Shown: one piece after another, positions 14,192 to 63,398 of the stretch
Numbering within the stretch: the first letter of the stretch is position 1
How the letters are laid out: each line of letters begins with the position of its first letter
DNA from: Callorhinchus milii
Taxonomy: Eukaryota
NCBI RefSeq assembly: GCF_018977255.1
Contig: NW_024704742.1
Coordinates: forward strand, 116,500,001-116,564,000
DNA length: 64,000 nucleotides
Direction of reading: 5' to 3'
The notes under the pieces: generated by a model
Database searches by the model: none
Told to the model about the DNA's origin: nothing
The model's input: only the letters and a program-made list of their open reading frames with translations
Position numbers and translations under genes: made by a program

Positions 14192-15961
14192 CTACGCAGG
14201 GAGGTGCTTCCATGTGCTGACAAATGCTGTGGGAATAAGTGAGTAAGGGACTGTAGTAATGCTGTTCCATGTGTCCAGTGTGGGGTCATAGCAGTCCAGT
14301 GTTTTGCATCTCTGAGTGCCAAAATAGCCTCCAACTACATAGAGTTTATTTCCAGATGCTACTGCGTGGCAGCTCATTCGCTTTGCTGTTACGTCCCCAA
14401 CCTTTGTCCATTGATAGGTCTCACTGTTAAATCTGTATGCAGAACATGCAGAGAATTCTGTATCCCCGCCCATGATAAAAATTTGGTTCCCCAGCACAGC
14501 TGCAGCTGTGTACCTCCAAGGCTGAGGGCAGGTAGCTGGCACGGTCCATCTGTTTTCACAAGGATCATAACACTGTACTTTAGGCAGTTTATCATGGCAC
14601 ACACTAGTACCACCAAAGGCAAATAACTTTAGTTTGGCACTAACCACAGCTGCATTGCTGACACCTTCCCGAAGAGGGGCTACCATTGTCCACTTGTTGG
14701 TCACTGGGTCATACTGTTCCACTTGCTTCAGAGACACAGAAGGTGATGCCGGTTGCCGTCCGGTGGCTGCTGTGTGTCCACCAACTACATACAGAGAATG
14801 CTTCAGCTCAGCAGAGCCATGGCCAAATCTTGCAACCAGCATAGGAGCTGATTTGGACCATTCTTCATGAAGTGTGTCGTACACCCAGACATCTTTGGAG
14901 ACACCGTTTTCTGATCCTCGACCTCCAGTCACATACACTTTACAGCCGATTGCACATGCACTAAATTCTTTGCGTGGGCTGGGGATGTCTGCTTTTGGAA
15001 TGATCTCCTTTGCTTTATGGTCTACTAAATATACTTTGTCGCACATGAAGGTCTGTCCTCCAAGCAGGAGCAAGGCATGGCCAGTTTTACGAGGTCTTGC
15101 ACAAAGACTGGTCACCACTCCGTCATTTTGTAGAATTTTCAATTTGCAGCGTATTGCTTCTTCCACTATCTCTTTACTCTTCACCTGCCTGGTGATAAGC
15201 TCCTCTATGGCCACATTCTCCATCAAGTAAACAGCTGGAAGGAGGGCTAGTCGAACTGTTTGCAACAGTTCTGGCAAACAACAGTGGCGTCTGTTCAAGT
15301 CATACTTCACCCAGTTTATGGCAGTCTCATAAACTAACCTCTCATCTTCCGTCTCTAGTTCTTCGCTAGAGAGAAGTTGCACCAATGTATCCTTCGGCAG
15401 TTGTAGAAAATCTTCACTCTTGCTAATGGTTGGGAAATTGCTGAGGCACATCCTCCAGGACAGTTCATAAAGTTTAGTGCATTGGTGGGCGTCAGAGAGC
15501 AGCAACATTCCAAGGCAGTTTGTGGGATGCAGATTTTTCTCCAGGAATTCAGCACAAGCGTCTCGGATATCTTGGAACTGTAGCATGTCCCCAGCCTCCA
15601 GCAGTGACTCTGCATTTTCTTCATTGATGAGGACACGAGACGAGTAAGCATAGTCCAGCAGAAGCTCCAGGACCTCAGGGTGTATGGAATCGTGAAAGTT
15701 CACTTCATTGTCTTTGCTCTCGCGAAGTCCTCCGCTAAACATAGCTTCAAAGTATCGGCTGCAGGCTGCCAGGACAGCCCTGTGGCAAGGGAAGGTCTTT
15801 TCGCCCGCGTGCAGGAGGACGTCTGTGAAGAGACGCTGTTGTCGTAAGAGATTAAGATGGGTGAGGACACTGTCCGCGTAGGTAGTCTTGTGGAAGAGGT
15901 AAATGTTCATGGAGCCATTGCTGGCCCTGGATTTGCGATTCTCGTGCATGCTGACTGACAT
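14192..15961 (-). CDS. ENC1: Ectodermal-neural cortex 1 (ENC1/KLHL37), BTB-BACK-Kelch protein, 589 aa; whole CDS in one exon (about 14170-15973)
   Basis: MSVSMHENRKSRAS...FVSTWKHLPA, 1770 nt including stop, matches the known ENC1 length and sequence; acceptor ctttcttccgcag just before 15973; donor GTAAGC 22 nt after the stop; neighbouring HEXB distinguishes it from paralogue KLHL25. An in-frame ATG lies two codons upstream (15967). Confidence 0.97.
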   Translation of the reverse strand: MSVSMHENRKSRASNGSMNIYLFHKTTYADSVLTHLNLLRQQRLFTDVLLHAGEKTFPCHRAVLAACSRYFEAMFSGGLRESKDNEVNFHDSIHPEVLELLLDYAYSSRVLINEENAESLLEAGDMLQFQDIRDACAEFLEKNLHPTNCLGMLLLSDAHQCTKLYELSWRMCLSNFPTISKSEDFLQLPKDTLVQLLSSEELETEDERLVYETAINWVKYDLNRRHCCLPELLQTVRLALLPAVYLMENVAIEELITRQVKSKEIVEEAIRCKLKILQNDGVVTSLCARPRKTGHALLLLGGQTFMCDKVYLVDHKAKEIIPKADIPSPRKEFSACAIGCKVYVTGGRGSENGVSKDVWVYDTLHEEWSKSAPMLVARFGHGSAELKHSLYVVGGHTAATGRQPASPSVSLKQVEQYDPVTNKWTMVAPLREGVSNAAVVSAKLKLFAFGGTSVCHDKLPKVQCYDPCENRWTVPATCPQPWRYTAAAVLGNQIFIMGGDTEFSACSAYRFNSETYQWTKVGDVTAKRMSCHAVASGNKLYVVGGYFGTQRCKTLDCYDPTLDTWNSITTVPYSLIPTAFVSTWKHLPA

Positions 15962-16649
15962 TCTCATCAAACGCTGCGGAAGAAAGTAAAAGTGACACTT
16001 TAGGTATACAGTTAAAAGCATGCACTGTCCAGGCCTCACAGGAGGTTCTTGTTAGATTTTTGTTCGTTATAAGATTGTCATTTGCCATTAAAAACGGTAC
16101 CTCTGCGTCCTTCTCAAACTTTGTAAACCCATGCACTCCCTCCACTCAGCGGGCGCTAACTTACTTCACATCCCCTGCCCTACCCACCCTACCATCAGCA
16201 CCTGAGCTTTCAGCCGATTTGCCCCCACACTCTGCAACTTCATCCCAGAGTCCCTATGATCTGGACCAATAGAAAAATACAGCCACCATTTTCCACGGAA
16301 TCCGCTATAACAGGGCCCTCTGCTATAAACCCGCTAAAAAACGTTTCTGGCCCCGGGCCTCCCGGCTGTTTACCTGACGTCACTTTGGGCTGGGCGGCTA
16401 GAAGCAGTGCAGCACGACGGACCTGCGAGAGACCAGGCAGCCAAGAGACACCTTCAACAAGGCAATGTGGTGACGGGGAACTTGGGAGGAACAACCCCCA
16501 ACGATCAGCAAAGCAAAAAGCGGACCGAGTAGAAGCAAACGCTTCCTCTCAACGCCCCTACTGTGGGGGGAGCAGCTCCAGACGCGCATGTGCAGTGCAG
16601 CGCAAGTGGGAAATGGGCTTTGCTCCTCTCGGAGGCCCAGCTGTTGAGA

Positions 16650-39858: not shown

Positions 39859-40211
39859 ACTTGCACCTTTCAGTCCCATTTACCTGCCTCTTTCACGTAC
39901 TCCTGTAGCTGACGCTTCAGTTATCTGTCTAGTTATCGCTTGAAGATCAATATGGCTTCTCTCTCAATCACCACTCCTAGCAGAATACTTCATATCTTAT
40001 CTATTCTGCACATGAAAAAATTCCTGTAATCTCCGCAGTTGTTCATTTACCAACTACAGTCAAAACTGTCTTCAAAAACTACTCAGAGGACTGAGCCAAA
40101 GTGACCTTTATACGTAAGAGTTTGTCGTTGTGTGATCCAGGCTGTCCAGGCTTTTCCAGAGTGATTGTTAACAGGGGATAGTTACTGAATAGAGATGGCT
40201 GTTTGAATTTC

Positions 40212-41588
40212 TAGAACGCATCGTTGCCAACCAACTTCACGCACACCTCTCCTCCCACTCCCTCTTCGAGCCCCTCCAGTCCGGTTTCCGCCCTGCCCAC
40301 AGCACAGAGACTGCACTTGTGAAAGTCACAAACGACATCCTCTCTAGCTGTGACCAGGGCTCCCTGTGCCTCATCCTCCTGGACTTCTCCGCTGCGTTCC
40401 GACACAGTTGATCACGCCATCCTCCTCCACCGCCTTTCCTCCGTCATCCACCTCAGTGGGACCGCACTTGCCTAGTCCTACCGCATAAACCGCCAGCAGT
40501 ACATCTGCACAAACGGCTTCTCCTCCCGCTCTCACCTGGTCACCTGGGGTACCCCAAGGATCCATCCTTGGCCCCTTCCTCTTTCTGATCTATATGCTCC
40601 CTCTTGGGGATGTCGTCCGCAGACATGGGGTACACTTCCACATGTACGCAGACGACACCCAACTCTATTTATATTTTTCCACCTCTCTTTGCGACCCCCA
40701 GTCCCCTGATGTTCTGTCAGTCTGCCTGTCAGCTCTCAGGGGCTGGATGAGTGCAAATTTCCTTCAGCTGAACTTTGACAAGACGGAAGCCATACTCTTT
40801 GGCTCTCGTCAACATCTAAAATCTCATGGCTCTCACCTCCTCCACCTACCCGCCCTCCCCCTAAAACTCTCCGAACCCGTATGCAACCTAGGCATCAAGT
40901 TTGACCCCCAATTATCCTTCCTCCCCCACATCCGGTCCCTCACCAGCACCGCCTTCTACCACCTCCGACGCATCACCCGTATCCGCCAATACCTCTCCCC
41001 AAAAGCCGCTGAAACCCTGGTCTAAGCTTTTGTCACCTCTCGGCTGGACTATTCTAACGTCCTCCTCGCCGGTCTCCCATCCACTACCATCCATAAAATC
41101 CAAATCATTCAAAACTCTACCGCCCGCATTCTCACCCGTATGAAACTCCATTCCCCAATCACCCCAGTCCTTGCCGGACTGCACTGGCTGCCTATACCAG
41201 AGAGGATCGATTTCAAGATCCTCACCCTTGTATACAAGTCCCTGCACTCCTCTGCACTCCCCTACCTCTCTGACCTCCTCTCTCTCCTCAAACCAGTACC
41301 CGTTGCCTTCGTTCCTCCGGGTCTGGCCTCCTCCTCATCCGCCGAGTCCTCCGCTCCACCCTCGGTGGCCGTGCGTTCAGCCACTATGCCCCGAGGCTCT
41401 GGAACTCCCTTCCTCACTCCCTTTGTCTCGCTCCCTCCCTTCCCATTTTCAGGTCTCTGCTGAAGACCTTTCTTTTCGACCTCGCCTTTGGTCACCTTCC
41501 TCCCCCTCCCCCTGGCTCGGCCCCGGGATCCATTACTGTAAAGTGCTCTGAGACGCCGCTATATAAATCCAAGTTGTTGTTGTTGTTG
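40212..41588 (+). mobile_element. L2 LINE ORF2 fragment (divergent subfamily)
   Basis: [55 protein letters not shown]; different 3' tail from the other copies. Confidence 0.9.
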
Positions 41589-43372: not shown

Positions 43373-43835
43373 ATGACGCCGCCGGTGGTTGTCCGCGCGC
43401 TGGGCTCGGCCCTGCTCCTGCTCGGGCTCGTGCTGTGCCTCCCAACGGCCGCCGCTCGGAAAACGACGGAGCCGCCCGAGTGGACCGTCCCGAAGGAGGA
43501 CACGGACTCGCCCTACGGCTCCCTCTGGCCGCTGCCCCAGACGGTTCGCTTTGACGGCGAGTGCTACCGCCTGAACCAAGGCCGCTTCCAGATCCTTCAC
43601 TCGAGCACGTCGACGGCGACCGTCGGCTGCGGCATCCTGGACGACGCCTTCCGCCGGTATTTCGGTTACATCTTCAGCTCGTCCTACCGGACAACCCACC
43701 GCCGCCCAGTCTCGAGCGGCCCCGAGGATAAGGAGAAGTCCGCCCCCGTGCCCGAAATGCTTCAGCTGCAGGTCACCGTCACCTGGAAGGACCCCGAGTG
43801 TGACAAGTACCCGAGCGTCACCTCCAACGAGGCGT
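43373..43835 (+). CDS. HEXB: HEXB coding exon 1 (signal peptide plus N-terminal domain; equals human exons 1+2)
   Basis: MTPPVVVRALGSALLLLGLVLCLPTAAA signal peptide; LWPLPQ; CGILDDAFRRYFGYIF; ECDKYPSVTSNEA; phase-1 donor GTGAGT at 43836. Confidence 0.93.
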
Positions 43836-43844
43836 GTGAGTACC

Positions 43845-44050
43845 GACCCCGGGAGGGGGGGGGACCCCGGCCCCGGGAGGGGGGGGGACCCCGGCCCCCG
43901 GGAGGGGGGGGGGGACCCCGGGAGGGGGGGGGGACCCCGGGAGGGGGGGGGGACCCGGCCCCGGGAGGGGGGGGGGACCCCGGGAGGGGGGGGGGACCCC
44001 GGGAGGGGGGGGACCCCGGGAGGGGGGGGGGGGACCCCGGCCCCGGCGGC
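43845..44050. repeat. G/C-rich minisatellite (GGACCCCGGGAGGGGGGG)n at the start of HEXB intron 1
   Basis: Directly visible, about 9-10 units with variable G-run length. Confidence 0.9.
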
Positions 44051-45057
44051 CCCGCAGCGCCATGTCTTTCCCTTTCGGCTGAGCGCTGCTGCACAACAGC
44101 GCTCCTTCCACTCGCTCCGACTCCCTCTCACTCGGGAGGGAGGACGTCTCCGAGCGCTGGATCGGATTTATTGTGAAGTGCTCCTCGAGAGAGAGAGAGA
44201 GAGATCTCTTCGTTTTCGGAGTCGCCCTGTGGGTACCTGTCATGGTGTCCTGTAGCGCGGTGAGAGAGACAGAGACAGAGAGGGTCGGTTCTCCGGCGGA
44301 ACCAAACCTCGGGCGAGTTTCCTGTTTTTACTCCCCTCCCTCCCCCCCCACTCCCGTTTTCCCGCAGTGAATGGGAACCCGGTTGTTAATCAGTTGGTGG
44401 ATCACTTTCCAGGGCAAATAAATCCCTTTTTTTTAATATACACACAAAAAATCTGGTCATCCAATCCACAGGGCCGTTGGCTGTTTGTGGGGCACCGCTG
44501 TGTGCTGTCGGCGCCGTGTTTCGCCCACAAAACAGGCAGTGGATCCACTTTACAATATATATATTATATTATATATATAATATATATATTGTATATTATA
44601 TATATAGTGAAGCGCTTTGGAACGGTCTCAATCAAGTGATCAGGTGCGATATCACCTGCAAGGATTATTATTATTATTATTATCATCATCATTTTATCGT
44701 CCACCTGAACGAGCAGACGGGGACTTTGAGTTGATGTATTGTCTGAAGGCAATATAACTCTTCGCCCTCCCTGCCCCAGCGCTGCATCGGACTGTCACGT
44801 TAGACTGAATTTAAACATCCTGATGTGAGCCTTCTGACTCTGAGATGAGACTGCTGTCACCGGAGCCGGTCTGAAACCTCCTTAAAAAAAACATAACGTA
44901 TACTAAGCTTTCCTAAATACTAGGGCATAGAGTGTTTGACTATTCATTTTTTTTTGGGGGGGGGGATTTTTGCCCAGAATCAGATTGATTTGGCTGTCAC
45001 ATTGGTCGCTACGTGACACAAGGGGCGAGAAGGGGAAGTGGGTAATGTTCCTTATTT

Positions 45058-45372
45058 GGAGCCCTGTAGCTCAGTGGTTAGAGCACTCGCCTCTCAAGCG
45101 AGAGACCTGGGTTTGATTCCCAGCAGGGGGCAAAACCTTAAGCAGGTTTCCTTATTCCACACACCTAATAATAATGCCTCAAGAAAAATAATAATAAATT
45201 GGTCACTTCAAGGCACGACTGTTTGTGGGACGCTGCTGTGTGCAATTTGGCTGCCGCATTTCGCCCACAAATATACAGTCAATTCACTTTGTAGTATATT
45301 CTGTGAAGCGCTTTGAGACGTCTAGAAGGCGGGAAAAGCTCTATATCAAATGCAAGGATTATTATTATTATT
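45058..45372 (+). mobile_element. tRNA-derived SINE ending about 40 nt before HEXB exon 2
   Basis: ggagccctgtagctcagtggttagagcactcgc head; (att)n tail. Confidence 0.85.
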
Positions 45373-45410: not shown

Positions 45411-45476
45411 ATGAAATCCATGTTTCGAAACTTAGGGCTACCCTGAAAGCAGAGACGGTATGGGGTGCCCTACGAG
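45411..45476 (+). CDS. HEXB: HEXB coding exon 2 (66 bp)
   Basis: AG/GT bounded; YEIHVSKLRATLKAETVWGALRG; same length as human exon 3. Confidence 0.95.
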
Positions 45477-46435: not shown

Positions 46436-46482
46436 GATTAGAGACATTTAGCCAATTGGTTTATGAAGATGATTATGATACT
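46436..46482 (+). CDS. HEXB: HEXB coding exon 3 (47 bp)
   Basis: AG/GT bounded; GLETFSQLVYEDDYDT. Confidence 0.95.
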
Positions 46483-48734: not shown

Positions 48735-48845
48735 CATCTCATTAATAAAACGGATATTATTGATTTCCCAAGATTTACTCACAGAGGAATCCTCATCGAT
48801 TCTTCACGACACTACCTACCTGTAGAAGTAATTCTTCAAACGTTG
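48735..48845 (+). CDS. HEXB: HEXB coding exon 4 (111 bp)
   Basis: [41 protein letters not shown] bounded. Confidence 0.96.
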
Positions 48846-49240: not shown

Positions 49241-49342
49241 GATGCCATGTCTTTCAATAAATTTAATGTTTTGCACTGGCACATTGTGGATGACCAATCA
49301 TTCCCTTATCAGAGTATTACGTTTCCCGAACTGAGTCAGCAG
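49241..49342 (+). CDS. HEXB: HEXB coding exon 5 (102 bp)
   Basis: [38 protein letters not shown] bounded. Confidence 0.96.
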
Positions 49343-50508: not shown

Positions 50509-50641
50509 GGTGCATATCATCCTGTCACTCACATTTATACAGCCTCTGATGTTAAAGAAATCATTGAATATGCTCGTTTAAGAGGAGTTCGAGTCATTCC
50601 AGAATTTGACACTCCTGGACACACACAATCATGGGGGAAAG
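50509..50641 (+). CDS. HEXB: HEXB coding exon 6 (133 bp)
   Basis: [49 protein letters not shown] bounded. Confidence 0.96.
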
Positions 50642-51175: not shown

Positions 51176-51356
51176 GTCAAGCCGATCTCCTTACTCAATG
51201 TTACAATGGTGAGGAGCCTAGCAGAACATTTGGACCTGTCAACCCCGCTGTAAATACGACTTTTGGCTTCATGACTAAGCTCTTTAAAGAGATCAGCCGC
51301 ACGTTTCCTGATGACTACATTCACTTGGGAGGAGATGAGGTGGATTTCTCCTGCTG
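51176..51356 (+). CDS. HEXB: HEXB coding exon 7 (181 bp; catalytic HLGGDE motif)
   Basis: [23 protein letters not shown]...[22 protein letters not shown] bounded. Confidence 0.96.
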
Positions 51357-51578: not shown

Positions 51579-51665
51579 GAGATCAAATCCCACTGTTAAA
51601 CAGTTTATGGAGAGCCATGGTTTTGGCACTGATTATAGAAAGCTTGAATCGTTCTACATTCAGAG
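51579..51665 (+). CDS. HEXB: HEXB coding exon 8 (87 bp)
   Basis: RSNPTVKQFMESHGFGTDYRKLESFYIQ; AG/GT bounded. Confidence 0.96.
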
Positions 51666-52240: not shown

Positions 52241-53154
52241 GATAACATAACTCCTGATAGAGGAAATTTCAGAAGAGTTTTCTGCTCACTTATTTTTATT
52301 CTTCCAGAATGCCTTTATCACAGCATCTTGCTGTGTCCAGCATCCTGGAAATAACCACACTTCCTGGCAATCTGTTAGTTATTTCATTACCCTTTGGGTA
52401 CAGAAGTACTTATTGACCTGTGTCCTGAAATTAAGCTTTGCAGCTCTAGTCCAGCGCTGTAGTCAATTTTGTGTGATTATCAACTGTCCTCTTGTTTCCT
52501 TATCCATAATGACTGATCCCAACTGTCTTTATTATAGAACTAAAATGGAAGATGGAATTTAAACTTGCTGAAGTTGTCCTATAATCCTCTATTTATTGGT
52601 TATCTGCTCTTGGAAGTATCATACATTTTTGTTCTTGTAGCACAGTGTTGTCCAATAGAAATCGTTGACTTTATCAACAAAAAGATCAAAAGTATACATG
52701 CATCCACCATGTAAATATGAGTATTGTACTTGCCCAATGATGGTGTCTATTACTCATTTTTTATTTACTAATCAAAAATGCAATTTCACCACATCTAGTT
52801 TCCAAATTTGCCACATGTGGCTAACGTATTGGACAACCCTGTTGTAGTGGGAGGTCTTGTGTAGCATTTCCTGTTACAAAGGTTTCCACTGACTAATTTG
52901 GAAATAAAGGTTTACATTTTACATAAATTGCCAACCAGTTTGGGGACGGAAGTTACAAAGATTTCAAACACAATGAAGGACTAATGGTGGTGATAATGGG
53001 GGTCTTTTGAAGACGTGTTTGAACCTGCACACTTATTATACTGAAATTGCTGCTGTAAAAATCTTCTAAAAATAGCGTTGTCTTTTGATACTTTTTGTGA
53101 CCAGTTTATTTGCCATTCTAAAACAGCGACTGATTCAGTGTATATTACTTGCAG

Positions 53155-53227
53155 TGTCCTGGATATTGTATCTGCCAATAGGAAGGGTTATATGATCTGG
53201 CAAGAGGTTTTTGATAATGGGGTAAAG
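53155..53227 (+). CDS. HEXB: HEXB coding exon 9 (73 bp), ends in phase 0
   Basis: VLDIVSANRKGYMIWQEVFDNGVK; AG/GT bounded. Confidence 0.96.
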
Positions 53228-54552
53228 GTAAGTACATGAAGCATTTGACCTATGCATGGCTGAATCTAGTTTAAAACCACTAAATTCCCAGGTAACGGGC
53301 AATAACTTAATACTGAAGATGCACTGGTGTAATGTTAATCTAGCTATTAATAAACTGCTTAGAACAACTTAAGGTAGCTAGAATTTCAGATGTGCAAACT
53401 CATTTATGATTAGTCTTGCCTGATTTTGATTTATTTCTTAATTTAGACATGCATCACATCTTATTTTACCTTGGGTGTTTTGGATTTTTTTAAAGTGAAA
53501 CTTCTCAAGTCATAAGGATGGTGGTTCCTGTGAATTTGAAACTATAGAGTAATGTCTGGTGACCTTATGATCCAGAAGTGAGCCATTTTTGTAGTTCAAA
53601 GTTTTTTTTTAAGAAAGTAACCGTAGAAATACATTCTTCTCGATTTGGAGAAAATTGGAAAACCTGTTGAATACTGATTTTACCAATTAAAATCAAAAAC
53701 TGGCAAGCCTATTTATAATGTTGACCTAGAAATGTGAGATTTGAAATTGTACAGATAGAATGGGTTGAGTAATGTTTCCTTTTCTGTTCTAAATCTCTTG
53801 GAGACTTCTTTGCTGAACTTTTTATAAAATGTTGCATGCCCTTATGATTTGCATGGTTCCATCAGTAACCTACAGATTTACTTTTTGCTGTCCTGCATTT
53901 ACAATGTCTCAGGGCATCCAGTTTTTCTTTAAAAAAAGCGTTAATAAATGAACTGGTAATTTTATAACTAACTATTTTGCAGAAAATCTTGCAATATGGA
54001 CTTTTCAGTGAAATTAATTTTACAAATGATAAATAAAAAAGCTTTGCTCATTTGATATTTTATAAAGTCAAAATGATCAAAAATGTCAATCTTATAAAAT
54101 ACTACAGATGTTCTGGTTGCTGGCTTTTTAATTTCTTCATCCGGATACTGATCCATATTCCTCATATCCTATAAACGTGGCCCTTTAGGTCATTTTCCTC
54201 CCTTAACTGAATTAAGTCAGTGGTACCCATCTCTCTACGCCCATCAGAGACTCACAGAGGGACCTGTAGTAAAATACAGAATGATGTTGTACCAGAATAG
54301 TCTGTATTCTGTTTACATTTTATCACAGCAATATGAGGTATAATTACTTTAGGACCCGAGTCTTGTGTAGTTTCAGCACATTCTGGAGACACCGATTATT
54401 CTTGGCCGTAAATGGTAATAACACTCAATTCCCTTGTTTTACTTCATTTCGAGCACTGGTGTAACTATTATTGAGTTTGTAGGATCCTGTTACAAAAGGA
54501 CATATATGAATATAGTTCTGTTAACTTTCCTCACAATATCAGAACTTAATTT

Positions 54553-54668
54553 GTGGAGTCTTGTAGCTCAGTGGTTGGAGCACTCACCTTGTAAGTGAGA
54601 GACCTGGGTTTGATTCCTGGCAGGGCAAAACCTATACCAAATGCAAGGTTATTATTTTGTTTATTATT
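54553..54668 (+). mobile_element. Internally deleted tRNA-derived SINE
   Basis: SINE head gtggagtcttgtagctcagtgg joined directly to the aaatgcaagg(tta)n tail. Confidence 0.7.
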
Positions 54669-56343
54669 AATTTGTATTCAGATGTCCTGTCTATTCTACT
54701 ATAATTTGCTTAGTAATTTTACTGCCCCACGTTTTCTACCAGTTTTCTGCAGTTGATTCATTTTGATACTTCTGCAACATACTCATTCATGTTGATGTTA
54801 GAGTTTTTAAAAAAAAAACTATTTTGTATCTAAACCATCAATCTTAACTCAAACTGTAGTTTAAAGTTAGTATTAAATTAATTTATTTGTCTGCAGTTGT
54901 AATATTTGTAAGTAAAAACCATTAAAGTCTGTTTAACCTATTTGCACTGAAATATTAGCTTTACTTGAATCAATCAGTTCAAATCTATTTTTCTTCCAAA
55001 TTTAGTGTATTTAAAAACTCATTACCCTCAGCTATAAATCCCTTCCTGCCTTAGTGACTTTCTCCTACCCCCACTCTTCGGCTCACCCTTCTCCTCAGCC
55101 AACTCGGGCCTCATGCCCATCCCCAGCCCTCTCTGTATTACTGTTGGTAGCTGATCCTTTAGCTACTAGGTTCCCATGGTTGCTGTGGTAGCTTACTGTG
55201 AGCAAATTGGTTGCCACATTCGCCTACAAAATAGTCAATCCACTTTACAATATCTCCTGTAACTCACTTTGAGACATCTCAAAGAGGTTATAAGGTGCTG
55301 TAGCCTTATTACAAAATAATCACCACTTTTTACAGTAAAATCCTATGAAGTGTTCCCCTGACATGAGGCACTATATCAAATATAAGGATTAATATCTGGA
55401 GCACCATGCCTCTACCACTCAAACATGTCCCTTCCTCTTCTTTTCTCAGTGTTCGACCCTATCCTTGTAAAGCTTTTGACGTTTGACTACATGAAAGATT
55501 CTATATAAATTGTTCTTGTGGTGTTGATGTGTTCTATTTATGTACAGCATATTGTTAGATGGCGATAGAAACATTTGTAGAAAGAGATGGAAAATTAGGT
55601 TCAGTGGGATACTGAGGTGAGAGGGACAGATCTTGAGGGCTGGCAAGGTGTTGCTATGGTGATTGTATTACACCTGATGCAGTAGTTTTTTAGTCTGCAC
55701 TGCAGATGATTTGTATTTTGTGTGGTCCAGTTAACCACACTGGTGATTTATCTGTATCAGAAACAGTCCCACTTAGTGTAGATAATTGTCTTGCTGCTGT
55801 ACTAATTGCCTATCAATAAAGCAAAAATTTTTGAGCTTATCATTGGTTCCAAAATAAATCCCAATTTTCACCAATCTCCTTTTTAAAAAAAAAAGCAACA
55901 AAGAATTATTTTTAATTTTTAATACTGCCTTTAATGGTCCTTACTTATAATGAACTGAAATTAAGCTTTCAATCATATCTCTGAAAACAACACAGAATTT
56001 TTGCACAAAAACAAGGAATTTGGCTAGGTATCTGCACAGTTGTCGTCTGAACATTATCCAAGTATTCTGTTCATCCAAAACTCAAACTTTTAATATATTT
56101 CTTGTTTCCATTTAATTCCCTTTTTATATGGTTCTATTTAATCACAGCTTACATTTAAAAACATTCAAACTTTTGGGTCAGATTCATTTGGGAGATTGCA
56201 CAACTAGAGAATTGAGCGATGCTGAGAAATAAAATTAAACAAGTTGTGAAAACTTTTTTTTGTGTGGTTGATTCTGGAACAATTTTGGATGGAGATCATT
56301 TGTAATACTAATTTAAAGAGTTAAATCTAGCTTCTTTTTACAG

Positions 56344-56518
56344 ATTAAACCAGACACCGTAGTTGAAGTGTGGATGGAGAGCAATGTAAAGAGAGAACTA
56401 GCTAAAGTAACGCGAGCTGGGTTCACAACCATCCTGGCAGCACCATGGTATTTAGATTACGTTAGCTATGGACAGGACTGGGTGAAATACTATCAAGTTG
56501 AACCTCTCCATTTCAATG
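56344..56518 (+). CDS. HEXB: HEXB exon 10a (175 bp; beta-type copy of human exon 11)
   Basis: ttttacag acceptor, GTTAGT donor; [59 protein letters not shown]; gives a 564-aa precursor. Confidence 0.95.
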
Positions 56519-58059
56519 GTTAGTTATTTCCTTTATAGAAGTGAGGAATGGTTCTGTAAATGTTGCATTGCATGTTACTATAAACACCTAGGATGCACCT
56601 GGAGTTCATAATGCTCCTATGATCTTAAGGATTTCTGAATAGATCTTTTGAAAGGTAACGTTTAGATGTTCACCAACATAGGATGATCTAGTCCTACAGG
56701 TTTCCATCTATTTTTATATTAAGTTGTACATTTGATCCAGTTCTAGATTGTACTTGCTAAACAATGGGAAGTGACCAAAGGGGTCATTAGTATAGAATAG
56801 TGAAACTTATTGAAATCAATATATTGCAAGTCACAAAATGAGACTACAACTGCCAATAAAACAATATAAACTTTGGAAAACTAAAAAAGTATTCTGAGGA
56901 TAATCTTCCCTCCCCTTTTACTTTAAAATGAATGTATTTTATATAGAAAGTAGGCTACTGTTTGTCCTTCATAATCTGGTTTTGGTGGTACAAGAAATGT
57001 TACCAATTTATCCGTGCAAATTAGACAGTCCAAAGGCCATGCGATGCTTAGACGTGGAGCGATTTTCATTACACGTTTTATAAGATGCAGCATTTTTTGG
57101 GGGGAAAACTCAAATCAAAGGCGAGAACATGTGCAAAGTTTCTACAATGTGAAGTTATCCAATACAATTTTATTGCAGCTGATTTGATGCAGTTTGTGTA
57201 GAATTTTTGAATGCAGGAGTTTCTGCAAAAATCTTCTAAACATTTAGATGTTTAACTTTTATGAAAAGTTAGAAATTTGATGAGTACCACTTTGGTTAGC
57301 TCTAGAATGGATATAGAAACTTGTATGCTCTGAACATAGTCTTTTTGATCTGGCTGCTCAATTAGTTTGTACAGTGAAATTCTACTAATTGAATACTCAA
57401 TTTACCTGAAAATTGTTCATTAAACCGAACAAGTCATATAACCGTAAATAAACCAGTGACCTCTTTGGGGAGGAAGGAGAGGATACCAGTGTTTGCACTG
57501 TACTGTAGAAGGGAGTAATTTGTGACTGAATTTGGATTAATAAACAAATTATCCTGGCAAAAAACAAATTATCCTGGCAATTGACCGACCTATATTCTTA
57601 GATATGGTTTGGGATTTCTAAATTCTATTCAATAAACTAAACTGTTCAGTTGTATGATATTCAATTAACTGAATTTCACTGTGATGTGTAAATATACAAG
57701 TTTTAATTGATTCATTACTTAAATATCCCAGCTGCATCTTTGGTAGGTTTGCAGTCACTAAACTGGTCTTAGTAGCTTCATAATGAAACCTTTGCTTGCT
57801 GTTTACTATCTTTTACTTCTAACTTTTCATGAATGTTTCCAACAATTTTATGTTGAGAGAAAATACAATTGCACAAATAAATGTAAATGGTTTGGTATAT
57901 ATGTAATATAATTTAGAAGCCGGTCATATCCACATTGAGACCTTATGGAAGTCAGAACTGTTGAAGATTTTAGTGGTGCAAGCTGATGTTTGCCCGCTTC
58001 AATAAATATTTTTGATAATTTTTTAAGGTTTCTTTATGTGAATAATTTTTGGTTTGTAG

Positions 58060-58240
58060 TTGAAGTTAGACACCATTGTTCACGTGTGGAAAGGCAACAC
58101 AGCCCAATACCAGAAGGAATTGGCCACTGCAACAGCTGCTGGGTTTCATGTTCTAATTTCCTCTCCGTGGTATCTAAATCGCATCGCATATGGGCAAGAT
58201 TGGCAGCAGATCTACAAAGTGGAACCAAGGAACTTCACTG
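58060..58240 (+). CDS. HEXB: HEXB exon 10b (181 bp; duplicated alternative exon with alpha-type Asn-Arg motif)
   Basis: tttgtag acceptor, GTGTGT donor; LKLDTIVHVWKGNTAQYQKELATATAAGFHVLISSPWYLNRIAYGQDWQQIYKVEPRNFTG; intact, same phases (0/1) as 10a; gives a 566-aa precursor. Confidence 0.9.
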
Positions 58241-60591
58241 GTGTGTCCAAATGGCAACAATTGCAGATTTGCTAGAAAACTGTCCTAAGTAAAAGTTTGA
58301 GTTTAATTGCTGCTTCAAGTAAATCCCTAAACTAAATTAGTTTTTTTTACCAATAAGTGGCTGTTGATTATTTTTGACCAACTACTTTTGTTAAACAAAA
58401 TTTTATGGTTTCAAGTAATCTGGTGCTGTGTAAGAGTACTGAAAACCAAGGCAATTTGAGCGTTAGAAGTAGAACCTATATTATAACCTAATGAGATGTG
58501 TATTTGAACTGAATGTTGACAGTAAGTAGTCATTCATTCCTCGTCCTTCTAAATGAAGATCTCAGGGTGATAGCATTACTAACAAAGTCCATTTTTTGGA
58601 TGAGACATTCTGCCTGTTTTCAAAATATCTCTGGTGGGGGGAAGAAGGTGATAAAGAGGGTTGATAACATTTCTGGTTACATTTCCGGATGCATTTTTGT
58701 CAATTTGAAAAAGAAACCTTTCCTGTTAGTCCAAGAGTTACTAACACTTAAGACTATACAGAAAAGGTAATTTTCTATACAGATTCTCATCGTTGTCAGT
58801 CAGGATTTAGGTGTACAATGGCCTAGTCATCCAAAGGCTTCCTTATTCTCCATAAATAATTGTCATCAAATATTGGATTAAAATATAAATACAAAAGTAG
58901 TCTGGCATATCTGTTGAGCAATGAAGTGACAGTCGCAAGCAAGTTATAATTATAATGGCTTATCAATAACATTCTGCATGATTGCAATTCTGGCTGATCT
59001 TTAGTCAACTTCAGTTATCTTCAACAGTGCTGATGGCTCCATTACTGCTCCTCAGCAAAGCTGAGCTTTTTTTTCCATCGTCCCCACAATGTTTTCTCCC
59101 TTATTTTAACCATGTCCTGATCACCTTTCGCATACCATCACAGTTTTATTCATCTGACTCTCAGCCACATAATCTACAAATTTTAGATTAGCTTTTATGT
59201 ATGATGCTCAATTTTACTTCTGCACCAGCACTCTGATCTCTCCTCACTGGGACCCCTCAATCCTACTTTCTCAAACGTTTTAACTCTGTCTCCATAGCCT
59301 AAGTTCTGTCCCATTCTTATCCAGTTCAGTGAATAGGTTTCAAGATGCTTTTTTTTGTTTGTTTTAAAACAACCCTATTTTCCTCACTCTATCCTAGCCT
59401 TCTCGGACTCATTGGAGGTTAAATCACCACCCTGTATGCTGGTGACATCCCCATTGTAAACCACTTTCATACTTTCAAAAATCTATTTTAAAATGCCCCC
59501 ATCTCATAATTCCTACCACTTTTTGCTCTACAACCATATGCCTCAAAAACATTATTGTGTATTAATGGTGCTAGTGTAATTTGTCTTTATGCATGGATAT
59601 AATCTGAATTAATGTATTCTCTTACATAACATAAGTCACCTATGGATCACATCCATAATAATGTAGGTTCCTGTTGTATTTGTACAATGTGGATGTTTGG
59701 TTATTGCTTTATTTGGAATTGTAATTCTTGTGCCTGATCCATCTCTTGAACTCCATTGTTGAAGAAGCCAGGTGGGAACAATGTACAGGTAACCAATGAG
59801 ATCTTTCAAGTAAATGCTTTGGGAAGTGGAAACCTGCAATCTGGGATGGAAAAACAGTGAATTCAATATTCTGCCAGATTTTGTAAGAACCATAATGTTT
59901 GGGATTCAAACAAAAGCCAGAACTGTCGAATGCTTCCCAACATGTATCCCGAAAGTGCTATATAAATACACATTTGTATTGCTTTTAAAGGTAATTTCTT
60001 TCAAGTGGCTGTTTACATTGATTTATTCTTGAACTATACTTACTGTTACGGTGCAGTTAATTGATTTAAGTAATCCATGCATTAACAATCAATAATTTTT
60101 CCAAATGAAATATAAGCAAGCCATGGTGGAGAATGTCAGTATCATTTTACTGTTCTCGCTTACTTTTGCCATTAGCACAAATATAAATATTGTTAAATAT
60201 TGATCTAAGCTTTCATAATCTAATAGTTTTAAATTCTTCAACCTTGGTATGTGTATAATGTGTTCAGAAATAAGAACATTTAAAACTCAGTGCTGTAGTC
60301 CCCTGGAGTCTATTGCAAGCGTACTAATAGCAAATGTATCTTCACTTCTGAGAGCGAGAGCAATAGTTAAGTGTTGCATCTTACTGCACAAATTAATCAG
60401 ACTAGTGTTTTAACACTAATTTGCTCATCAGTAATGGAAGTTCTGGCACTATCTAAGGACCCACTTAGATATATGGGTTTATCTATGGGTATATGGGTTT
60501 AATTTCCATAGAATGGAAATTTTGAACAAGAAATCAAAGTTGGAGACACTTCTACCATTTCATCCTTTTTTTTCCCCTCCCCCAAATCTAG

Positions 60592-60682
60592 GAACAGCTG
60601 CCCAGAAGAAATTGGTGATTGGTGGAGAGGCTTGCCTCTGGGGAGAATACGTGGATGGAACAAACCTCACACCACGATTATG
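60592..60682 (+). CDS. HEXB: HEXB coding exon 11 (91 bp)
   Basis: [34 protein letters not shown] bounded. Confidence 0.96.
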
Positions 60683-61108
60683 GTTGGCAACCTATTCTAT
60701 TGTTTAATTCAGATTGTGTTGTATCTTTTTTGAATGCTGAAATGTTGCATTTAGTGTATAATGTAATTAAATAGATCTGATCTACTTTTGACTTTATCAC
60801 TGCAGTAGGTAGCTTGGTTTTATTTTTTTTGGCTGTTCATTGCAGAGGCTGTTTCAATGCATTTTGAATTCTGTTTACCTTCCCAAAACTGTTTGTTTTG
60901 GAGAGTATTTCAAACCATTTTGTTTGGAATCCCCAATGTGTGTTTCCTTTGTCCACCACAGGTGGGAACTGGTTAAAAGCATTATACTGATTGTGAACTC
61001 CCTTTAGTTGTGGGCACTAAATAAATGACATGAAGGGTAATTTTTTAAGCTTTTGTGCATTTTCCAAGATACCATGTTTATGAAATGTACTTGTTTTGCT
61101 CCTGGAAG

Positions 61109-61213
61109 GCCTCGCGCGAGTGCTGTTGGTGAACGACTTTGGAGCCAGGAAAACGTAACTGTTCTGGGAGATGCATACAGTAGACTTACTAAACACCGTT
61201 GTCGCATGATCCG
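61109..61213 (+). CDS. HEXB: HEXB coding exon 12 (105 bp)
   Basis: [35 protein letters not shown], beta-type sequence; AG/GT bounded. Confidence 0.96.
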
Positions 61214-61850
61214 GTAAGCAAAGATTTAAATTTTTATATTTACACATATTGTGCCTTTTTTTAATATAACTTCAATTCATAAAATGAAGGCATCACTCAG
61301 TGTAGAGCTCAGCTATGCAAAGCAGAAGATAATTAAATTTTAATCTCTGCTCAGTAACTAGTGCAGTGATAGCAGTGCCACAATTGGGTTCAGCACACCC
61401 AGGGTTAGGAAGTACAAAATCAGAATAGCTTCCATTCCTGGTTTCTAATCCAGACATCTGCTGAATGGTGACAATCAGTTGAAAATAGGATCTGTTTCAG
61501 CTGTGATGTTGGTGTGATGCCATTGTCAACCTGACTTATCAATGGGAAAACAAATAATTTTAAGAGGAAAGGGAGAAAAATACAGTGCATAATTCAGGAG
61601 AGTCCAATGTGAACATTTCTTGACCAGCTCTCTGCAACTTTGACAATCAGTTTGAGTAATAACGATCCAAAAGAAGTAGATTAATGCAAAATGTCTTTTG
61701 TTAAATGGCTTTCCACCAATGCCACCATTGCTGTTTTGAATGTTATAGAGCCTTGATTTTTATTTAAAGCATCTCCATCACATTTAGTTGATCATAATAC
61801 AGCTGGAAGTTGATATATTTTTTAAAAAATCCTTTTTTTCCCATTTTTAG

Positions 61851-61911
61851 ACGAGGGATACCCGCAGAGCCGATGTTTGTTGGCCATTGTGCTTATGAAT
61901 ACAAAGGCTGA
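61851..61911 (+). CDS. HEXB: HEXB last coding exon 13
   Basis: RGIPAEPMFVGHCAYEYKG then TGA; long pyrimidine tract and tag acceptor. Confidence 0.95.
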
Positions 61912-62420: not shown

Positions 62421-63109
62421 TCCAATGTCAACATATACAAGTTTTTACTTGGTGCTTTTCCACTGTTATCTATTTCAGCAGCAGTACTTACCATTTTGAA
62501 ATTGACGTTAAATGTTTGATTATTCACTTTTTTAAAAAAATCTGAACAATCTGGCAAGGAATCTCAAAGCACAAATTTCTACCGAATTGTTGCCATGCAC
62601 TGTCTGCCAATTCTGTGTTTTTCTGCCAAAAATGTTCTGGTATCCAGTATAACTTGGCCAAGTAGTCTACCGCAAAAGAAAAACAGATTCATCAAGTCGA
62701 TCATGAGGTGCCTCATTAATTGTGCTTGGTGCTCTTGCCAGTTTAGAGACCTCAATTTCTGCTGTGGTGAGCAGTCAAAATTTTGACTTACAAATGTGGG
62801 ATGTTGTTTGCAAATATTTTTTGCAAGCCTGTTATATTTTAACACTGGTTTCCAACATTTTTTAAAAATCATTGGAACTAATGAGCTTTGCAATTGATGG
62901 CTTTCTGTATCTCAAACAAGAGCATATATTTTTACCTTGCCTATAATCTTTTTGGAATGTAGTCCAGTTTGGTGGTTTACATAATTGCCATAAGGTAATT
63001 GATGTATTAGTATTTAATATAGCCAGTGCCTTGGGAGTGCTTCAGTTTTTTCTGTAAAGTGTACTGACTATTTACAGGCAAACCAATGTCCCACAACTGC
63101 CATGAAGTC

Positions 63110-63398
63110 AAACCTTAGGCAAGTTTCCTTACTCCAGACACCTTACCCAGCAGTAAGTAGGAACCCAGTTGTAAGTTGATTGGTGGATTTCTTTCTGGGG
63201 ATAATAATCCTTAATAAAAAAATTTAAAAAATTGAGTGGCTACTCAATCCACGACTTTGTCGGACACTGCCATGGGATATTGACTGCCACATTTTGCACA
63301 CAATTCACTTTACAGTATATGCTGTGAAGCACTGAGACATCTTGAAGATGTGATAAGGTGCTATATTAAATGCAAAAATATCAAATGCAAGGATTACT
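63110..63398 (+). mobile_element. 5'-truncated SINE
   Basis: aagtttccttactcc...cccagcagtaagtagg...aaatgcaaggatta, like 34150-34437. Confidence 0.7.

Follow-up and report, generated by a model that had tools for sequence, protein, structure and literature searches.

Introduction

Mutually exclusive homologous exons can do the work that is otherwise done by paralogous genes, as in FGFR2 (IIIb/IIIc) and PKM (exons 9/10), and the interchangeability of alternative splicing and gene duplication is a familiar concept. The division of labor between the α and β subunits of β-hexosaminidase, which are encoded in human by HEXA (the Tay-Sachs gene) and HEXB (the Sandhoff gene), has an origin that is so far unexplained. 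The substrate pocket of human β consists of 13 residues, of which just D452 and L453 differ from α (N423 and R424), and six changes in HexB (R312G, Q313S, N314E, K315P, D452N, and L453R) conferred GM2 degradation and increased the specific activity on 4-MUGS a hundredfold (5.0e-5 before and 5.0e-3 mmol/min/mg after the changes; Matsuoka et al., 2011; PMC3129794). The present analysis concerns a stretch of 64,000 nucleotides of the elephant shark Callorhinchus milii (assembly GCF_018977255.1, contig NW_024704742.1, positions 116,500,001 to 116,564,000 of the forward strand), hereafter the window, in which the HEXB gene carries two alternative exons, 10a and 10b, with β-type and α-type residues, respectively, at the position that separates the human subunits.

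The isoforms are already present in databases and the corresponding teleost event stands in one supplementary table; no text was found in which they are interpreted. Under prolonged warming of a reef fish, hexb is among 21 differentially spliced genes (PMC8933327), and the rMATS table of that study describes the teleost HEXB event as mutually exclusive exons (MXE) of 181 and 175 nt that are flanked by exons of 91 and 73 nt, with a false discovery rate of 1.6e-3 (supplementary data S4), sizes that are the same as those of the C. milii exons. Among three further sources, a study of the evolution of glycoside hydrolase family 20 (GH20) used the longest isoforms (PMC2492878), the report of a zebrafish hexb knockout with >99% loss of activity has 0 occurrences of “isoform” or “splic” (PMC6772114), and a review states that zebrafish has hexa and hexb and that loss of hexb removes 99% of the activity (PMC10002607). 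No account of the function or evolution of the exon pair was found in the literature, searched without subscription journals; the initial annotation, which was made from the letters of the window, likewise knew of no functional description.

The exon pair and its gene

Exon 10a (56344..56518, forward strand, 175 nt) is preceded by ACAG and followed by GTTAGT (...acag/ATT...ATG/gttagt); its frame 0 is open and ends in ...LHFN. Exon 10b (58060..58240, forward strand, 181 nt) is preceded by GTAG and followed by GTGTGT (...gtag/TTG...CTG/gtgtgt), and its open frame 0 reads LKLDTIVHVW...PWYLNRIAYGQDW...RNFT (in full, LKLDTIVHVWKGNTAQYQKELATATAAGFHVLISSPWYLNRIAYGQDWQQIYKVEPRNFT). The remaining two frames of each exon are rich in stop codons. 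Since 175 and 181 nt are both 1 mod 3, the phases of the two exons match. They are identical at 106 of 174 aligned nucleotides, and the 10b-carrying protein K4FUT9 has 44% identity to the 10a region of the window. The two intact paralogous exons with AG/GT ends and a shared phase that the initial annotation had proposed are thus homologous, open, and canonical.

A search for splice sites that reproduce the deposited protein gave one solution, comprising 13 exons from 43373-43835 to 61851-61911. The 10a version of this model is identical at 564 of 564 residues to NP_001279725/AFM85656/K4G3I5 (beta-hexosaminidase subunit beta precursor, Callorhinchus milii), and the 10b version is identical to the final 566 residues of XP_042191527 and XP_007903527. 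A further deposited protein, AFK11359/K4FUT9, carries 10b and differs from the window in the exon-1 region only. Because the model translations match deposited C. milii proteins exactly, the window is the HEXB locus of C. milii or is indistinguishable from it, and the surmise that automated annotations may list both isoforms is borne out, each exon being present in deposited proteins of the species. The observed exon pair is real; its agreement with the deposited proteins and with the splice joints described below is far beyond chance. Another UniProt entry of C. milii, A0A4W3JIR2, follows 10a up to ...DWVKYYQ and then has the last 11 residues of 10b (IYKVEPRNFTG); this hybrid is most likely a prediction artefact and was left out of the trees.

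The protein NP_001279725 matches PF00728 (Glyco_hydro_20; 3.9e-94) and PF14845 (Glycohydro_20b2, N-terminal; 1.1e-23), and the second protein tested matches both families too. The catalytic Asp-Glu pair lies in the constitutive exon 7 (51176..51356), which reads HLGGDEVDF as in human α, compared with HLGGDEVEF in human β; the corresponding β residues, D354 and E355, are among the pocket residues named in PMC3129794.

Active-site residues of the two exon types

The exon corresponds to human β residues ~415-472 (~416-471 in the printed alignment of 10a to the structure 3lmy_A), and 4 of the 13 pocket residues (W424, Y450, D452, and L453) fall in the alternative exon. Exon 10a has Asp-Tyr where human β has Asp452/Leu453, and 10b has Asn-Arg where human α has Asn423/Arg424, reading (P)WYLNRIAYG against WYLNRISYG in human α. 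Among solved structures, 10a scores 73.7 bits with human β and 59.3 bits with human α; for 10b, the order is 5bro_A (65.6 bits), human α (62.5 bits), and human β (60.1 bits). The loop VWKGNTAQYQKE of 10b is two residues longer than that of human β, exactly where human α is three longer, although the letters are unlike (T-A-Q in 10b and I-P-V in human α). The longer loop corresponds to α 396-398 if the chain index of 2gjx is offset by 22, and the numbers N423 and R424 follow from the same offset. The α 396-398 loop has a role in binding of the GM2 activator. These alignments to human α and β structures, which at 55-60% identity suffice to fix the positions, agree with the earlier description of 10a as carrying the β-type Asp and of 10b as carrying the α-type Asn-Arg together with a longer loop.

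A second α-like feature lies outside the pair. The exon 7 loop reads G-E-E-P, compared with G-S-E-P in α (280-283) and R-Q-N-K in β, so that three of four residues equal those of α; the aligned segments are CYSGSEPSGTFGPVNP for human α, CYSRQNKLDSFGPINP for human β, and CYSGSEPLDSFGPINP for the engineered protein 5bro. Because exon 7 is constitutive, both isoforms carry this GSEP-type loop. The best solved-structure match of exon 7 (90.6 bits), as of 10b, is 5bro_A, the alignments of which show Asn-Arg and GSEP within a β chain. The 10b isoform looks like a natural version of the engineered HexB, and it may behave alike.

Splicing of 10a and 10b

Four public runs (X1, X2, X4, and X13, from three studies; 14 runs are listed) were compared with positions 52900-61300 of the window. 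Exon 9 (53155..53227, 73 nt) serves as the common donor of the pair, and exon 11 (60592..60682, 91 nt) as the common acceptor. Joints with GT..AG ends were found in contigs for 9>10a (53227>56344; contig depth 182 in X1 and 124 in X2), 10a>11 (56518>60592; 195 in X1), 9>10b (53227>58060; 353 in X1, 35 in X2, 330 in X4, and 38 in X13), 10b>11 (58240>60592; 583 in X1, 330 in X4, and 38 in X13), and, farther on, from exon 11 to exon 12 (61109..61213; 60682>61109; 686 in X1 and 38 in X13). All four junctions that had been predicted around the pair are thus present, and because GT..AG joints occur in these runs, spliced copies are present in them. A contig of 1646 nt in X13 joins exons 9-10b-11-12 and one of 1432 nt in X4 passes through 10b; in these two runs, the 10b joints have 73-93 letters on the shorter side. 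No joint from 10a to 10b was listed in the contigs of the four runs, which can drop rare forms.

In model translations, inclusion of both exons shifts the frame into a premature stop 81 nt upstream of the last junction; when both are skipped, the frame likewise shifts, and the premature stop lies 169 nt upstream of that junction. Productive mRNAs are thus limited to those that contain one of the two exons and not the other. Exons 10a and 10b are an expressed mutually exclusive exon pair, and a very old one, as the records described below attest.

Intronic pairing that could enforce exclusivity was looked for around the exon pair, and 22 AT-rich inverted pairs were found, none of them convincing. 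One perfect inverted pair of 15 nt, AT-rich and perhaps due to chance, brackets the two exons, at 56078-56092 (~250 nt upstream of 10a) and 58290-58304 (50 nt downstream of 10b). The intron between 10a and 10b contains an exact 20-nt tandem duplication, AAACAAATTATCCTGGCAAA, in two copies (57542-57580), and run X1 is without 3 nt at 57572 in the same intron. Intron 9 holds a short interspersed repeat (54305-54866), with copies also at ~45017-45110 and 63018-63176; contig depth over it is 4939 in X1 and 3684 in X2, against ~90 alongside, and its translation contains a tRNA-derived-looking motif, VAQWLEHSP...RDLGLIPG, that recurs elsewhere in the window.

Distribution and conservation of the pair

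Among the 120 best relatives of K4FUT9, 77 have one Asn-type motif (NR 60, NV 12, NY 2, NF 2, and NH 1) and 30 have one Asp-type motif (DY 28, DI 1, and DW 1). Two motifs occur in 12; 11 of these are vertebrate gene models of 578-624 residues in which an NR exon comes after an Asp-type one, evidently a concatenation of the two alternatives, and the twelfth is a fluke fusion. The one remaining protein, from a beetle, is without the motif. In four lamprey species, Latimeria, Polypterus, Erpetoichthys, Hypanus, and Hemitrygon, a single gene has two isoforms that are distinguished by the alternative exon, and the same holds for Dendrobates, Anomaloglossus, Ascaphus, Danio, and Labeo. The pair is annotated in lampreys, sharks, rays, bichirs, sturgeon, teleosts, coelacanth, frogs, and salamanders. 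In lampreys, WYINS and a loop longer by two residues occur in the form that NCBI names “subunit alpha-like isoform X1,” and WYLDI occurs in “subunit beta-like isoform X2.” HEXB of Ambystoma mexicanum has three versions of the exon (X3, X1, and X2, with Asp-Ile, Asn-Phe, and Asn-Arg, respectively); the b-type exon was thus duplicated again in salamanders. The four amniote HEXB proteins in the set are of the Asp type only, from which we infer that the b exon was lost from HEXB in amniotes.

Across 63 aligned gnathostome exons, the Asp/Asn split is invariant, with Asp in 23 of 23 a-type and Asn in 40 of 40 b-type exons. Identity to Callorhinchus is 0.61-0.85 for the same exon type, 0.47-0.61 for the other type, and 0.59-0.68 for the rest of the protein, so that a-type and b-type exons are each conserved at least as well as the rest of the protein across jawed vertebrates. 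An old duplication with selection on both copies, as originally suggested, understates a pair that is annotated from lampreys to frogs. A correction is needed in another respect: Arg is no constant of the b-type exon, and the Asp/Asn switch alone is constant.

Origin of the b-type exon

Outside the alternative exon (482 columns, 76 sequences), the vertebrate HEXB proteins form a clade with a support of 0.81, or 0.975 with the lampreys, that follows the species tree, and HEXA is separate from it (1.0). The rest of the gene is therefore HEXB, as had been claimed from its C-terminal sequence. Orthology of the whole protein to HEXA was considered and rejected, since the gene falls within the HEXB clade and just the 10b exon groups with the HEXA exon.

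Trees of the exon were computed with FastTree on 76 sequences, and with IQ-TREE and approximately unbiased (AU) tests on 44 sequences. The 76-sequence tree unites HEXA with 10b at a Shimodaira-Hasegawa-like support of 0.92, which becomes 0.90 when the two motif columns are masked and 0.95 when gapped columns are masked as well, and HEXA and 10b also stand together in the best IQ-TREE tree (44 sequences, 68 columns). In the latter data set, forcing 10a and 10b to be monophyletic costs 22.6 units of log-likelihood (p-AU 0.034), whereas a tree of an ancient pair, {HEXA, 10b, lamprey b}/{10a, lamprey a}, is not rejected (p-AU 0.41). Ten columns discriminate between a and b exons; of these, HEXA is b-type at 7 and a-type at 1. 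The lamprey a exon, which groups with 10a (support 0.87), is a-type at 7 of the 10 and b-type at 1; the lamprey b exon is b-type at 5 and a-type at 4. Single sequences of invertebrates have a:b ratios of 8:1 in Ciona, 7:2 in Lingula, and 2:7 in Branchiostoma; the Lingula entry is itself labeled “isoform X3.” The exon tree gives moderate support for the HEXA exon as the closest relative of the b-type exon.

It is tempting to speculate that the exon pair is older than the split between HEXA and HEXB, a suggestion of the exon trees to which we would give close to an even chance. The wider scenario built on it is more tentative and falls somewhat short of that: the two-gene α/β system would be derived, and the ancestral vertebrate gene would have made both subunit types from one locus by means of the exon pair. 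After genome duplication, one copy would have kept the b exon only and become HEXA; in the other copy, HEXB, both exons would have been kept in lampreys, cartilaginous and bony fishes, and amphibians, and the b exon lost in amniotes. Several points weigh against these suggestions. The HEXA sample comprises nine sequences, namely seven sauropsid proteins named “subunit alpha” and two unnamed proteins assigned from the tree, and the exon tree is without HEXA of fish, amphibians, or mammals. The sauropsid proteins came from a search with an unnamed query roughly equidistant from α and β; among the 150 best cluster representatives, which were used for outgroups only, neither a recognizable vertebrate HEXA nor Asn-Arg at the motif was found. 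The support for HEXA with 10b drops to 0.49 once the lamprey b-type exons are added, and when motif and gapped columns are masked (54 columns), monophyly of 10a and 10b is not rejected (difference in log-likelihood 10.9, p-AU 0.21) and the lamprey b exon falls outside the gnathostome b exons. These results with the masked columns, the mixed states of the lamprey b exon, and the occurrence of either flavor among single invertebrate sequences, which means that a and b states can arise repeatedly, would all fit a history in which the exon was duplicated inside HEXB after HEXA and HEXB separated, and independently in lampreys, with the b copy converging on HEXA or being gene-converted from it. We regard this later, repeated origin as somewhat doubtful, yet a serious contender. 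HEXA and 10b stay together in the best tree under all three maskings, the discriminating columns place HEXA with the b type and the lamprey a exon with 10a, and the lamprey gene groups with HEXB outside the exon; two independent duplications, each ending with Asp in one copy and with Asn and a longer loop in the other, would also be less economical than one ancient pair.

Searches for HEXA in the C. milii genome

The 991.5-Mb assembly was searched with K4FUT9, turtle HEXA, and PF00728, and no separate HEXA locus was found in it; all matches lay within the HEXB locus, a result about the assembly that does not prove absence from the organism. The matches in the HEXB locus were 12 of 15 candidates for K4FUT9, 11 of 12 for turtle HEXA, and 4 of 6 for PF00728. 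Turtle HEXA matched 10b (77.8 bits) better than 10a (64.3 bits) and, because it detected HEXB exons down to an E-value of 8e-4, a true HEXA should have been seen if it were assembled. The search with PF00728 is too insensitive for distant GH20 genes, since just four HEXB exons matched.

A proposed model for subunit choice by splicing

These observations suggest that one HEXB gene, through the mutually exclusive exons 10a and 10b, yields both β-like and α-like subunits, a reading that we consider probable. The 10a isoform would be a β-like subunit that prefers neutral GlcNAc/GalNAc ends. The 10b isoform would be α-like, because its Asn-Arg is predicted to accept the GM2 sialic acid as well as 6-sulfated GlcNAc, and the loops of this isoform may suit the GM2 activator. 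Dimers of the isoforms of one gene would be HexB-like (a/a), HexA-like (a/b), and HexS-like (b/b), and the splicing ratio would set the balance among them.

Some of the evidence counts against this model. The switch between neutral and anionic substrates is transferred from mutagenesis of the human enzyme (PMC3129794). Following the Asn, the 40 gnathostome b-type exons have Arg in 21, Val in 15, and Phe in 3, and lampreys have Ser; because Arg is variable, a general function of b-type exons cannot depend on it. Val or Tyr stands in its place in all 14 elasmobranch b-type exons seen, Val in bichirs, and Phe in one salamander copy, which would fit an explanation in which the pair is real and exclusive and the b-type exon mainly alters something other than specificity for anionic substrates, such as dimer partner choice or stability, the way in which the longer loop docks the GM2 activator, or the response to pH and temperature, with Asn-Arg being a lineage detail. 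Such an explanation, which we regard as unlikely, would agree with the presence in the exon of Ile454 and Tyr456, dimer contacts of human β named in PMC2492878, and with the shift of the reef fish MXE ratio under prolonged warming (PMC8933327). However, the sole invariant difference between the exon types, Asp versus Asn, lies at the very specificity determinant named in PMC3129794, the b exon of C. milii has the full Asn-Arg, and the two types do not differ at the dimer-contact residues (columns 49 and 51). The transcript records also have weak sides. The 10a joints are thin in the contigs, with a shorter-side overhang of 28 letters in X1 and X2; the contigs of X4 and X13 show 10b only; the runs are recorded just as “RNA?” guesses and contain unspliced stretches; and contig depth can neither rank isoforms nor show regulation of the isoform ratio in C. 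milii. The short 10a overhangs and the 10b-only runs could be taken to mean that one exon is not used for protein at all, being a decaying duplicate or a poison exon that triggers nonsense-mediated decay. This seems very improbable, as both exons are open with canonical splice sites, each alone keeps the frame and is conserved no less than the rest of the protein across jawed vertebrates, and each is found in a deposited C. milii protein, one of which is the NP_ record.

Other exons and neighboring features

All exons of the model are on the forward strand. Coding exon 1 (43373..43835) begins with the ATG at 43373, is GC-rich, and belongs to the model that matches NP_001279725; it is followed by exons 2 (45411..45476), 3 (46436..46482), 4 (48735..48845), 5 (49241..49342), and 6 (50509..50641), the last two of which match PF00728, and, beyond exon 7, by exon 8 (51579..51665). 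Exon 13 with the stop codon is at 61851..61911. Given the difference between K4FUT9 and the window around exon 1, this part of the gene may be polymorphic or difficult to sequence. Starting 8 nt after the exon-1 donor, there is a GC-rich tandem repeat with a unit of 19 nt in ~7-9 copies (consensus CCCCGGGAGGGGGGGGGGA; 43843-44031). Directly upstream of HEXB, at 40193-41460 (+), there are reverse-transcriptase-like open frames (...YADDTQLY...), probably of a decayed long interspersed nuclear element.

The initial annotation had also invoked synteny with ENC1. A BTB-BACK-Kelch neighbor is present, as an intact open reading frame of 615 residues at 14192-16039 (-); the nearest named Atlas cluster is “Kelch-like protein 25” (KLHL25; score 0.99), from which ENC1 was not distinguished. 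In human, the ENC1 paralogue KLHL25 is located on the HEXA chromosome. A search of solved structures with the neighbor protein matched no ENC1 or KLHL25 entry. Whether the neighbor is ENC1 or KLHL25 bears on which of the paralogous regions the HEXB locus represents.

Implications for models of GM2 gangliosidosis

A natural, splice-switchable β backbone with an α-type pocket would be a counterpart of the engineered HexB that is under therapy development (PMC3129794), and the exon pair provides sequence solutions that have been tested over hundreds of millions of years. Zebrafish hexb carries both exon types, and since the knockout paper is silent on isoforms (PMC6772114), it may be necessary to take isoforms into account when GM2 gangliosidosis is modeled in fish and frogs. 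If the pair is indeed ancestral, the b isoform of HEXB in zebrafish and frogs may back up HEXA, which would alter the reading of Tay-Sachs and Sandhoff models. Because no HEXA is detectable in C. milii, the single elephant shark HEXB would, if this absence is true, still supply HexA-, HexB-, and HexS-like enzymes, and the chimaera would be a natural single-gene system for testing the subunit switch.

Comparison with known systems

The closest described system is that of human HEXA and HEXB (Hex A, Hex B, and Hex S), with which C. milii HEXB shares the GH20 fold, the domains, and the catalytic motif. The same two pocket positions separate the subunit types, Asp452/Leu453 in β and Asn423/Arg424 in α, and the α loop is longer at 396-398. 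By contrast to the human two-gene system, the C. milii subunit types would come from one gene, the isoforms are identical outside ~60 residues, the GSEP-like loop is constitutive, and no separate HEXA locus was found in the assembly. The engineered HexB (5BRO; Matsuoka et al., 2011; PMC3129794) is alike in having a β backbone with Asn-Arg at 452/453 and a GSEP-type loop at 312-315. That protein was designed, whereas the C. milii 10b isoform is natural and splice-switchable; moreover, the six-residue design is without the longer loop of the 396-398 type, which 10b has.

The isoform pairs of lampreys, zebrafish (isoform 1 and X1), and the teleost rMATS table have the exon at the same position and the same Asp/Asn split as C. 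milii, and vertebrate pairs differ by lineage in the residue after Asn, which is Arg, Val, Tyr, Phe, Ser, or His. In relation to pairs of the FGFR2 and PKM type, the HEXB exons are likewise arranged in tandem with the same phase, exactly one of them is used, and the specificity for a ligand or substrate is the property that changes, or, for HEXB, would change. The HEXB pair also accords with the concept that splicing and duplication are interchangeable, in that a sister lineage makes the same split with two genes; it would be a clean case, with splicing in one lineage, gene duplication in another, and a disease-relevant read-out. Unlike in FGFR2 and PKM, the enzyme concerned in C. milii is a lysosomal glycosidase, the switch is located in its active site, and the two states correspond to two human disease genes.

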